A stretch of DNA of 64,000 bases from the NCBI RefSeq assembly GCF_030013595.1, contig NZ_CP122768.1; one strand, 5' to 3'. Source of the stretch: Escherichia coli (GTDB lineage: Bacteria; Pseudomonadota; Gammaproteobacteria; Enterobacterales; Enterobacteriaceae). This document shows, piece after piece, positions 58,171-61,389 of this stretch. The number at the start of each line of letters is the position of its first letter. Within the stretch, counting starts at the first letter, position 1. Below the pieces are notes generated by a model. That model saw only the letters and a list, made by a program, of their open reading frames with translations, was not told the origin of the DNA and made no database searches. A program made the position numbers and the translations under genes.

Positions 58171-59274
58171 ATGAACATGAAGGGTAAAGCGTTACTGGCA
58201 GGATGTATCGCGCTGGCATTCAGCAATATGGCTCTGGCAGAAGATATTAAAGTCGCGGTCGTGGGCGCAATGTCCGGTCCGGTGGCCCAGTACGGTGACC
58301 AGGAGTTTACTGGTGCTGAGCAGGCGGTTGCGGATATCAATGCTAAAGGTGGTATCAAAGGCAACAAACTGCAAATCGTGAAATATGACGATGCCTGTGA
58401 CCCGAAACAGGCGGTTGCGGTGGCGAACAAAGTCGTTAACGACGGCATTAAATATGTGATTGGTCACCTCTGTTCTTCATCAACGCAGCCAGCGTCAGAC
58501 ATCTATGAAGATGAAGGCATTTTAATGATCACCCCAGCGGCAACCGCGCCAGAGCTGACCGCTCGTGGCTATCAGCTGATCCTGCGCACTACCGGCCTGG
58601 ACTCCGACCAGGGGCCGACGGCGGCGAAATATATTCTTGAGAAAGTGAAACCGCAGCGTATTGCTATCGTCCACGACAAACAGCAGTACGGCGAAGGTCT
58701 GGCGCGTGCGGTGCAGGACGGCCTGAAGAAAGGCAATGCTAACGTAGTGTTCTTTGATGGTATCACCGCTGGGGAAAAAGATTTCTCAACGCTGGTGGCG
58801 CGTCTGAAGAAAGAGAATATCGACTTCGTTTACTACGGTGGTTATCACCCGGAAATGGGGCAAATCCTGCGTCAGGCACGCGCGGCAGGGTTGAAAACTC
58901 AGTTTATGGGGCCGGAAGGTGTGGCTAACGTTTCGCTGTCTAACATTGCGGGCGAATCAGCGGAAGGGCTGCTGGTGACCAAGCCGAAGAACTACGATCA
59001 GGTTCCGGCGAACAAACCCATTGTTGATGCGATCAAAGCGAAAAAACAGGACCCAAGCGGCGCGTTCGTCTGGACCACCTACGCCGCGCTGCAATCTTTG
59101 CAGGCGGGTCTGAATCAGTCTGACGATCCGGCTGAAATCGCCAAATACCTGAAAGCGAACTCCGTGGATACGGTGATGGGGCCGCTGACCTGGGATGAGA
59201 AAGGCGATCTGAAAGGCTTTGAGTTCGGCGTATTTGACTGGCACGCCAACGGCACGGCGACTGATGCGAAGTAA
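58171..59274 (+). CDS. livJ: Periplasmic Leu/Ile/Val-binding protein
   Basis: 367 aa from [23 protein letters not shown] (signal peptide); paralog of livK. Confidence 0.9.
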
Positions 59275-59332
59275 TCATTAATCGGCAACTTTGGGTTGCC
59301 GCCAAATTGCTAATATCGAGTACGTTGCTTCA

Positions 59333-59433
59333 TGCCGGATGCGGCGTAAACGCCTTATCCGGCCTACAAGATCCAAAGAAATCAGTAAATTGCAACACAC
59401 GTTGTAGGCCTGATAAGCGTAGCGCATCAGGCA
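59333..59433. repeat. REP/BIME-type palindromic element (two inverted REP units)
   Basis: tgccggatgcggcgtaaacgccttatccggcctac and inverted partner gtaggcctgataagcgtagcgcatcaggca between livJ and panZ. Confidence 0.75.
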
Positions 59434-59473
59434 ATTTCTCGTTGGTCATCACTTTTGAAATCAAACTTTACGA

Positions 59474-59857
59474 TTAACGCTTCTCCCAGCCGCCCTGTTG
59501 TGCCGTAAACCCCAGTGCCTGCATAAACGCCGTCATCACACCGCGATCTTCCACGCCTGCATCCGCCATCCACCAGCATGAAACGCCAGGATTGTTACGC
59601 AAAACCTCTTCCAGCAGATATTGCCCCACACCGCGACGGCGGGTGACTTCCCGCACGCGCAGGGAATCCAGTGCGCCCTCCGTGCCGCTTAAGGTTACCC
59701 GCACGGCCGCGAGCAGGCGCTCGTTAAAACGCGCGGCGTAGATACGGTGGTTATCGTCAACCTGTAAAGAGGAAGGGGAATACTCCGGCCAGATCTTTTG
59801 CAGGTCAATCCGGTCCTGGTCGCTAAAGTTTTCTAATCGAATGATGGTCAGCTTCAT
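59474..59857 (-). CDS. panZ: PanD maturation/regulatory factor (GNAT-like)
   Basis: 127 aa MKLTIIRLENFSDQDRIDLQKIWPEY... Confidence 0.85.
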   Translation of the reverse strand: MKLTIIRLENFSDQDRIDLQKIWPEYSPSSLQVDDNHRIYAARFNERLLAAVRVTLSGTEGALDSLRVREVTRRRGVGQYLLEEVLRNNPGVSCWWMADAGVEDRGVMTAFMQALGFTAQQGGWEKR

Positions 59858-60279
59858 GGGGAACCCGTGTAAATCACAAAAGTGGAACCAGTGTAGCGAA
59901 ATAATTTAATCGGAGGCTTTCTCTTTTTTAATTCTTTTGGCAGGTGATTAATTTTTAACAGCAATAATTACAAAGTTAAAACATTAGAGAATGAAAAATA
60001 CCCAGCATAATCCCCTGAATGGTAGTGAATTATTCCGCCCTTTGTGCCGTTATTTTATGCTGACAACGGCACTTTTTTCTGTTTATCTATCAATAAATTC
60101 AGAATATTATCTGTTCTTAATCGACTGAAAAATAGGGATTTTAATCGCTATTATCACAAAATACTGCGCTAAACCCTTAATCAGACAGGCAAAAACAGTG
60201 CAGTATAAAAAAAGAACAGTCTGATTTGTTAACACATAAAAACAAAGCAACACAACATCACGAATGGGGATTTTTGACT

Positions 60280-61389
60280 ATGAAACGGAATGCGAAACCT
60301 ATCATCGCAGGGATGATTGCACTGGCAATTTCACACACCGCTATGGCTGACGATATTAAAGTCGCCGTTGTCGGCGCGATGTCCGGCCCGATTGCCCAGT
60401 GGGGCGATATGGAATTTAACGGCGCGCGTCAGGCGATTAAAGACATTAATGCCAAAGGGGGAATTAAAGGCGATAAGCTGGTTGGCGTGGAATATGACGA
60501 CGCCTGCGACCCGAAACAAGCCGTTGCGGTCGCCAACAAAATCGTTAACGACGGCATTAAATACGTTATTGGGCACTTGTGTTCCTCCTCTACCCAACCT
60601 GCATCAGATATCTACGAAGACGAAGGTATTCTGATGATCTCGCCGGGAGCGACCAACCCGGAGCTGACCCAACGCGGTTATCAATACATCATGCGTACTG
60701 CCGGGCTGGACTCTTCCCAGGGGCCAACGGCGGCAAAATACATTCTTGAGACGGTGAAGCCCCAGCGCATCGCCATCATTCACGACAAACAACAGTATGG
60801 CGAAGGGCTGGCACGTTCGGTGCAGGACGGGCTGAAAGCGGCTAACGCCAACGTCGTCTTCTTCGACGGCATTACCGCTGGAGAGAAAGATTTCTCCGCG
60901 CTGATCGCCCGCCTGAAAAAAGAAAACATCGACTTCGTTTACTACGGCGGTTACTACCCGGAAATGGGGCAGATGCTGCGCCAGGCCCGTTCCGTTGGCC
61001 TGAAAACCCAGTTTATGGGGCCGGAAGGTGTGGGTAATGCGTCGCTGTCGAACATTGCTGGCGATGCTGCCGAAGGCATGTTGGTCACTATGCCAAAACG
61101 CTATGACCAGGATCCGGCAAACAAAGGCATCGTTGATGCGCTGAAAGCAGACAAGAAAGATCCGTCCGGGCCTTATGTCTGGATCACTTATGCGGCGGTG
61201 CAATCTCTGGCGACTGCCCTTGAGCGTACCGGCAGCGATGAGCCGCTGGCACTGGTGAAAGATTTAAAAGCTAACGGTGCGAACACCGTGATTGGGCCGC
61301 TGAACTGGGATGAAAAAGGCGATCTTAAGGGATTTGATTTTGGTGTCTTCCAGTGGCACGCCGACGGTTCATCCACGGCAGCCAAGTGA
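60280..61389 (+). CDS. livK: Periplasmic leucine-specific binding protein
   Basis: 369 aa from [23 protein letters not shown]; highly similar to livJ. Confidence 0.9.

Follow-up and report, generated by a model that had tools for sequence, protein, structure and literature searches.

A REP element of the BIME-1 type between livJ and panM of Escherichia coli is younger than the livJ/livK duplication

In Escherichia coli K-12 the LIV-I/LS system is encoded by livJ (b3460), panZ, also named panM or yhhK (b3459), and livKHMGF (b3458-b3454). LivJ, which binds Leu, Ile and Val broadly, and LivK, which binds leucine, share one transporter, LivHMGF (PMC12708883). Repetitive extragenic palindromic sequences (REPs), also called palindromic units (PUs), are imperfect palindromes, 30-40 nt long, whose foot carries a conserved GTAG/CTAC tetranucleotide, and the bacterial interspersed mosaic element BIME-1 consists of one y and one z1 REP, in single copy, with a long conserved L linker that frequently carries a site for integration host factor (IHF) (PMC3333891). 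None of the components is new: descriptions of the locus, of LivJ and LivK as paralogs with a common transporter, of PanZ and of REP/BIME elements go back decades. We analysed a 64,000-nt stretch of an E. coli genome (assembly GCF_030013595.1, contig NZ_CP122768.1; hereafter the window), in which livJ and livK flank panM on the opposite strand and a REP element follows livJ. What the analysis adds is of limited weight: a negative result, with neither a connection of the REP element to the duplication nor conversion between livJ and livK in E. coli; a date for the origin of livJ, which was acquired as an additional copy at the base of the Enterobacteriaceae beside an ancestrally placed panM-livK pair; and a dimorphic livJ-panM spacer, holding either BIME-1 or the toxin-antitoxin (TA) module ataRT, which may be of modest use for understanding the turnover of TA modules and REPs in core-genome spacers.

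The gene order at 57-64 kb of the window is ftsX-rpoH-livJ-panZ-livKHM, as read from the open reading frame (ORF) listing and the raw sequence, and the region is very probably the standard E. coli rpoH-livJ-panZ-livKHMGF locus. An earlier note on this DNA, made from the letters alone, had named livJ, panZ and livK, and ORFs, NCBIfam and RefSeq agree with it on the positions and strands of all three genes:

58171-59274, plus strand: livJ, with ATG at 58171 and stop at 59274; periplasmic Leu/Ile/Val-binding protein, precursor of 367 aa (NCBIfam, RefSeq, PDB).
59474-59857, minus strand: panZ/panM, PanD maturation factor with a GNAT fold, 127 aa (NCBIfam, PDB, RefSeq).
60280-61389, plus strand: livK, with ATG at 60280; leucine-specific binding protein, precursor of 369 aa, gene 1 of livKHMGF.

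LivJ and LivK scored 697.5 and 700.2 bits, respectively, against NCBIfam NF011933 (high-affinity branched-chain amino acid ABC transporter substrate-binding protein; curated cut-off 477 bits), with matches spanning positions 2-370 of the 370 in the profile, which makes both members of that family. PanM is likewise a member of the equivalog NF033213 (aspartate 1-decarboxylase autocleavage activator), with 190.1 bits over residues 1-126 and a cut-off of 68. All three proteins have solved structures (1z15 and 2liv for LivJ, 1usg for LivK, 4cry and 2k5t for PanZ); in searches of the PDB, LivJ matched 1z15 with E = 1.4e-229 and the leucine-specific binding protein 1usg with E = 3e-183, while PanZ matched 4cry_B with E = 4.6e-82. 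The association with livHMGF also holds, as livH and livM lie 3' of livK in the window and livG and livF are found in a 99.9% identical genome.

Of 5,426 complete E. coli genomes, 5,416 contained the interval 57900-61600 whole in a megablast search, the best match being 99.9% identical; the RefSeq annotation of that genome (livJ, panM, livK, livH) follows the order of the window. K-12 MG1655 has the identical order (livJ b3460, panZ/yhhK b3459, livK b3458), with the same genes on the same strands, and the window departs from the K-12 locus by allelic differences only, among them a LivJ N-terminus that reads MNMKGK and a livJ-panM spacer 12 bp longer than that of K-12-like strains. The window shares 97.1% identity with a K-12-like genome across 5.4 kb and 92-93% with E. 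albertii, and therefore belongs to E. coli. At 57900-61600 it represents an uncommon lineage of the species, with 10 records at least 99% identical and most others at 95-99%; the genomes that are nearly identical to it across this interval came from pig faeces in the UK.

The spacer between livJ and panM is 199 nt long (59275-59473). The earlier note had recognized a two-unit REP palindrome after livJ, and this proved sound: given the recurrence of such repeats across the genome, the two units are far beyond chance. The spacer contains:

59283-59301, plus strand: 8-bp hairpin directly after the livJ stop, with no U-tract (minimum free energy and centroid folds, both strands).
59334-59367, plus strand: Y-type REP unit GCCGGATGCGGCGTAAACGCCTTATCCGGCCTAC, an imperfect palindrome of 34 nt with a CTAC end (59364-59367), predicted to fold as a hairpin.
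59368-59403, no strand assigned: L-type linker of 36 nt, with an IHF-like site AATCAGTAAATTG at 59380-59392.
59404-59432, minus strand: short Z-type REP unit GCCTGATGCGCTACGCTTATCAGGCCTAC (minus strand), inverted relative to the Y unit and a hairpin in the folds.

The pair conforms to the description of REP/PU palindromes: the GTAG/CTAC feet of both units point to the linker and the arms are 86-94% complementary, although the Z unit, with GTAG at 59404-59407 on the plus strand, is 29 nt long and so falls slightly below the 30-40 nt of the definition. The two units are also the only matches to a variable-loop REP pattern in the whole window. Hairpins are predicted on either strand for both, and fold z-scores for the spacer are -2.95 and -2.76. 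With one Y unit, one inverse unit presumed to be Z1, no further units in the spacer and a long L linker (36 nt, itself partly conserved), the sequence fits a single BIME-1/RIP-type element, comprising a Y REP, an L linker with an IHF-like site and a short Z REP. The linker sequence AATCAGTAAATTG has one mismatch, in the ATCAA core, to the IHF consensus WATCAANNNNTTR; it is the sole such site in the spacer, and IHF binding there is a prediction. The small hairpin at 59283-59301 is kept in the BIME-form spacers of E. coli and was not called as an intrinsic terminator.

The family to which the element belongs is abundant. The 111-nt element occurs at a minimum of about 40 places per genome in all 5,426 E. 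coli chromosomes, as expected of an extragenic repeat, and in genomes without it at livJ-panM the best match elsewhere is full-length, with 98% coverage and 86-88% identity. We fetched copies from the livF-ugpB spacer, where the element lies in the opposite orientation relative to the liv genes, and from the barA-gudD spacer. When these are aligned with the livJ-panM copy the REP arms are identical and the linker is partly conserved, the copies sharing the pattern AAGATC..AAAT.CA.TA.ATTGCAAC.CAC; the core of the IHF-like site reads AATCAG in the window and ATTCAA in the two other copies. The livF-ugpB copy (L088:1501-1609, L090:1501-1609) is the nearest paralogous BIME-1, with 88% identity over 109 nt, and follows the end of livKHMGF. 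In strain KE55 (L002:1876-3498) the insertion sequence IS1397 has interrupted the loop of the Y unit, between GGCGTAA and TAAACGCC, with TAA duplicated. IS1397 specifically targets palindromic units (PMC3333891, its reference 10), so that this insertion is an independent mark of a genuine one. The livJ-panM element thus has in common with BIME-1 (RIP/RIB) its architecture, its full-length identity of 86-88% to other copies and its targeting by IS1397, and the REP family classification that the earlier note had recommended comes out as BIME-1/RIP type.

We also considered naRNA4, a nucleoid-associated RNA derived from REP325, which comes from a six-repeat cluster (PMC4550694). The Rfam model of naRNA4 (RF02564) gave 40.4 bits at 59327-59364 and a further match of 26.3 bits, below the gathering score of 59.5. 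This identity was rejected: the matches reflect the REP hairpin consensus that the two have in common, whereas the livJ-panM element is a single BIME-1 and not a six-repeat cluster. The copy of the K-12 RefSeq record that we consulted lists no REP or RIP repeat_region features. A further hit to the name 'LivJ', in PMC2229807, concerned an RU-3 fusion only and is unrelated.

The element is one of two common occupants of its site. The BIME form of the spacer (59275-59473) is present in 3,747 of the 5,426 E. coli genomes (69%), and the ataR-ataT TA module takes its place in 1,613 (30%). In the ataRT form (for example L004:2058-3003, L005:3126-4070 and L007:6036-6987) the replacement takes up the whole spacer, beginning at the livJ stop and ending about 5 nt short of the panM stop, the 3' end of ataT overlaps that of panM, and a canonical hairpin with a T-run follows livJ. 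Sequence comparison revealed no convincing residual homology between the BIME and ataRT spacers; the best match aligned the Z REP arm with the terminator hairpin that follows livJ in the ataRT form, with 16 of 18 nt identical, and was dismissed as unconvincing. Among BIME-form strains the element is 95-100% conserved.

The spacer of E. albertii likewise holds ataRT. Beyond it, the module or its remnants were seen at livJ-panM in Pseudescherichia vulneris, Phytobacter massiliensis, a Pluralibacter sp. and a Superficieibacter sp. (the E. albertii locus and these four being L007, L021, L029, L031 and L084), with AtaT proteins of other species 71-97% identical to that of E. coli, a truncated AtaT in L029 and an AtaR fragment in L084. 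This distribution suggests one of two histories: an ancient resident module with many losses, or a single site at which replacement has happened repeatedly. The length of the spacer varies between genera from 37 bp to 4.2 kb, and its contents are unrelated. Its ORFs include 401-aa and 199-aa frames in a Cedecea metagenome-assembled genome (L061) and in 'Klebsiella sp.' BIGb0407 (L063), a frame of about 680 aa in both Superficieibacter loci (L069, L084), joined in L084 by frames of 180 aa and 194 aa, and a 211-aa frame in Siccibacter (L038). These ORF-bearing spacers of 1-4.2 kb mark livJ-panM as a variable insertion spot.

To date the duplication we compared 80 loci, annotated by tblastn in a scan of one genome per species. 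The order rpoH-livJ-panM(-)-livK-livH, with panM on the minus strand, is found in 60 Enterobacteriaceae loci. Truncated contigs and Pseudescherichia excepted, every sampled genus of the family has both copies, including Escherichia, Citrobacter, Salmonella, Klebsiella, Raoultella, Enterobacter, Leclercia, Kosakonia, Buttiauxella, Cedecea, Pluralibacter, Siccibacter, Shimwellia and Mangrovibacter. All 15 loci from other families of the Enterobacterales (Dickeya, Mixta, Pantoea, Erwinia, Sodalis, Rahnella, Serratia, Brenneria and Edaphovirga) instead read rpoH-panM(-)-single binding protein-livH. A position of panM 5' of the binding-protein gene is therefore the ancestral state; at the base of the Enterobacteriaceae livJ was added as an extra copy between rpoH and panM, and by position it is livK that is orthologous to the single outgroup gene. 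The earlier description of panZ as lying between the paralogs is right as to position, but the arrangement is better put as livJ placed upstream of an ancestral panM-livK pair.

In protein sequence the single-copy outgroup members are slightly nearer LivJ (78.4% identity) than LivK (75.1%). At precursor position 41 they share Tyr with LivJ, where LivK has Trp, and among 29 nearly fixed differences between the paralogs they agree with LivJ at 15 and with LivK at 11. Pseudescherichia vulneris (L021:7661-8146) is without livK between panM and livH, and 'Escherichia sp. ESNIH1' (L023:7150-7848) gave a truncated livK match only; because livK is absent or truncated there, it seems to have been lost in this lineage and livJ kept.

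Set against this age, the BIME is a young and dispensable occupant of a variable spacer and one of two common alleles in E. coli, because it is absent or replaced by ataRT in many E. coli and in E. albertii, while the duplication is family-wide.

The divergence of the paralogs themselves was assessed by pairwise alignment. LivJ and LivK are 77.7% identical (285/367) and their genes 73.8% identical, so that their description as highly similar over the whole length is broadly right, but the similarity is uneven: identity drops from 80-83% in the core to 64% in the part with the signal peptide and to 56-64% at about nt 850-1030 of livJ. The Nei-Gojobori method gave a non-synonymous divergence (dN) of 0.155 and a synonymous divergence (dS) of 1.58, and other methods dS values of 1.38-1.73; synonymous sites are therefore saturated. 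Even for residues conserved between LivJ and LivK only 53% of codons are identical, and the longest stretch of perfect identity is 25 nt.

Gene conversion between livJ and livK was sought with four tests on a codon alignment of 60 livJ, 60 livK and 15 single-copy genes. In 120-nt sliding windows the distance between livJ and livK of the window equalled the mean cross-species distance everywhere, in both directions, and the largest deficit for the window genome was 0.033. Neighbour-joining trees supported reciprocal monophyly of livJ and livK when built from all sites, from codon positions 1+2 or from four of the five segments, and in every segment tree the two genes of the window met only at the base. 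In the eight Escherichia alleles about one-third of the differences coincide with the paralog; these are scattered and form no dense runs. A run of six paralog-matching differences over 234 nt in livK of L004 was set aside, as it is not significant after 16 comparisons (a rough estimate). Windows, runs and trees thus detected no conversion tract in this genome or in seven other Escherichia alleles, which is also the outcome of the livJ/livK alignment that the earlier note had proposed as a check.

Two points weigh on the other side. In a permutation run test one run of 19 nt, at columns 266-284, reached a nominal p of 0.023. This run lies in the most conserved protein segment and several other species gave similar p values; we rejected it as conversion, since the test assumes equal rates across sites and runs fall in the most conserved protein segments, and we attribute it to rate heterogeneity between sites. 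Secondly, the tests are weak for very short tracts and for very old ones, formed before the sampled genera separated.

The approach did find tracts where they exist. In the positive control, Mangrovibacter plantisponsor (L068), the livJ-livK distance at columns 488-568 is 0.033 against a cross-genome median of 0.24, with a run of 50 polymorphic sites that was matched by none of 3000 permutations. Smaller tracts were found in M. yixingensis (L065, columns 549-571) and Entomohabitans (L064, columns 210-254), and the Mangrovibacter and Entomohabitans tracts account for the failure of monophyly in one segment (columns 451-668). Conversion between livJ and livK therefore occurs within the family, but this genome bears no trace of it. 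Paralogs in the same orientation and 1 kb apart, with tracts in Mangrovibacter and Entomohabitans, recall the concerted evolution of tufA and tufB; the Escherichia genes differ in having no tract, a saturated dS and a longest identity of 25 nt. The class of paralogs under gene conversion thus takes in L068, L065 and L064 and leaves out the genes of the window. Taken together, livJ and livK are best seen as old paralogs, encoding two periplasmic binding proteins that feed the shared ABC transporter LivHMGF, and as having probably evolved separately in the Escherichia lineage since the duplication, under purifying selection and without detectable conversion.

These results bear directly on the idea that the REP/BIME helps the paralogs on either side of it to recombine or convert one another, or delimits the segment that was duplicated, a link of the kind that the earlier note had drawn. 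BIME copy number does differ between strains, TnpA(REP) cleaves and recombines BIMEs in vitro (PMC3333891), and livJ/livK conversion is real in some genera. Yet there is one BIME between the paralogs rather than one per copy; about 31% of E. coli lack it, E. albertii has ataRT in its spacer, and the duplication predates the family. No Escherichia allele that we examined carries a conversion tract, and the genera that do, Mangrovibacter and Entomohabitans, have spacers of 39-79 bp with no REP match. The 3.7-kb arrangement, moreover, is intact in 5,416 of 5,426 genomes. A role in recombination or as a boundary is thus largely refuted, and we regard it as highly improbable. The link with paralogy fails for the same reasons, the BIME being younger than the duplication, missing from many E. 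coli and unaccompanied by a tract. Nor does the element lie at a paralog boundary. The genes that converge on it with their 3' ends are livJ and panM, and convergent 3' ends are where BIMEs are typically located.

That location points to the 3' ends of mRNAs. REP hairpins are reported to stabilize upstream mRNA and to attenuate or terminate transcription, and the linkers of BIME-1 to bind IHF (PMC3333891). No intrinsic terminator was called between the livJ stop and the panM stop, and both convergent transcripts therefore probably enter the BIME. Transcripts of livJ would run into the Y hairpin 60 nt past the stop, and those of panM into the Z hairpin 41 nt past the stop; the two hairpins could then shield the mRNA 3' ends from exonucleases and attenuate read-through. 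We favour some such role for this BIME, and stabilization or termination by REP hairpins is plausible as a general function.

Three considerations tell against this view of the element. Some 30% of E. coli lack the BIME and have a hairpin with a T-run after livJ, so that any role it has is replaceable. The IHF-like site is mismatched in the ATCAA core and is a prediction. The Y and Z1 labels, moreover, are presumptive, drawn from the general consensus features and the architecture.

Two other accounts of the element bear on the same data. The BIME-1 (RIP/RIB) might act mainly on DNA, through an IHF-bound bend, nucleoid organisation or supercoil insulation between convergent genes, with any effects on mRNA secondary. 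Its architecture would suit this, as a single copy with a Y and a short Z unit and a 36-nt linker that carries an IHF-like site; L linkers frequently have an IHF site and REPs are described as topological insulators (PMC3333891). We consider this account somewhat unlikely here, as the predicted IHF site deviates from the consensus in its ATCAA core, the linker is the least conserved part among paralogous copies and 30% of strains do without the element altogether.

The element may alternatively be a neutral or selfish insertion in a permissive convergent spacer, with no part in the expression of liv genes or panM. Its presence/absence polymorphism in E. coli, the range of spacers across genera (37 bp-4.2 kb, with unrelated cargo) and the occurrence of the same repeat family at unrelated loci would all be expected of such an insertion. 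REP hairpins at 3' ends have, on the other hand, been reported as mRNA stabilizers and terminators (PMC3333891), the element is 95-100% conserved in strains with the BIME form, and no other terminator is predicted for livJ or panM. Neutrality is accordingly a serious contender that we nonetheless doubt, and a role of the BIME at mRNA 3' ends is the reading that we retain.

The other spacer at the 3' end of a liv unit offers a parallel. The livF-ugpB BIME-1 was fetched from two strains, THO-003 and AVS0153, and is probably present in many more. Strain HCP5S3_I2, the nearest to the window, has no REP in its livF-ugpB spacer, which holds phd/doc (L091:1539-2429); the phd/doc form is found in 106 of 5,426 genomes (2%). 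It is conceivable, though we think it quite unlikely, that the spacers at the 3' ends of both liv units (livJ-panM and livF-ugpB) are long-lived either/or sites, occupied by BIME-1 or by a type II TA module. Were this so, either the TA module would be ancient and lost many times, or small elements would swap at the same junctions by a directed mechanism.

The regions upstream of livJ and livK show no detectable homology. Their local alignment score of 23 is not significant against shuffled sequences (19.3 +/- 2.5), and the exceptions are a C/A-rich stretch and the AATGGGGA Shine-Dalgarno region. The features noted there are:

58114-58150, plus strand: C/A-rich stretch in the livJ 5' untranslated region, predicted to pair with the R1 region of the small RNA GcvB.
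60225-60264, plus strand: C/A-rich stretch in the livK 5' untranslated region, predicted to pair with the GcvB R1 region.
59858-60279, no strand assigned: panM-livK divergent regulatory region, 422 nt, of constant length, with A/T-rich CAG...CTG motifs (Lrp-like).

Duplexes were computed with the R1 region only, as full-length GcvB gave meaningless long duplexes. With K-12 GcvB R1 the livJ duplex reached -28.6 kcal/mol, a value equalled by 5 of 500 shuffled targets, and the livK duplex -33.5 kcal/mol, equalled by none of 500. These predictions agree with the listing of both livJ and livK as GcvB R1 targets (PMC9299463). The two genes would thus have separate promoter regions, each retaining a C/A-rich predicted pairing site for GcvB.

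The panM-livK spacer is strikingly uniform in length, measuring 396-434 nt in 70 of 76 loci across the Enterobacterales, outgroup families included. Its CAG...CTG motifs CAGAATATTATCT, TTATTTTATGCTG and CTTAATCGACTGAAAAATAGAG are conserved in sequence, not in RNA structure, most strongly at 60098-60140. A terminator-like hairpin at 60044-60072 was entertained as a leader or attenuator RNA and rejected, as its stem is unconserved in 64 loci and RNAalifold found no consensus structure. Since the flanking motifs are conserved but the stem is not, we read the spacer, from its sequence, as a probable protein-binding, divergent control region of the Lrp type, in agreement with the known control of the liv genes by Lrp; the assignment of the motifs to Lrp is presumed from the literature. 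In E. coli 4621 (L003:2459-3657) a copy of IS1 lies within this panM-livK regulatory region.

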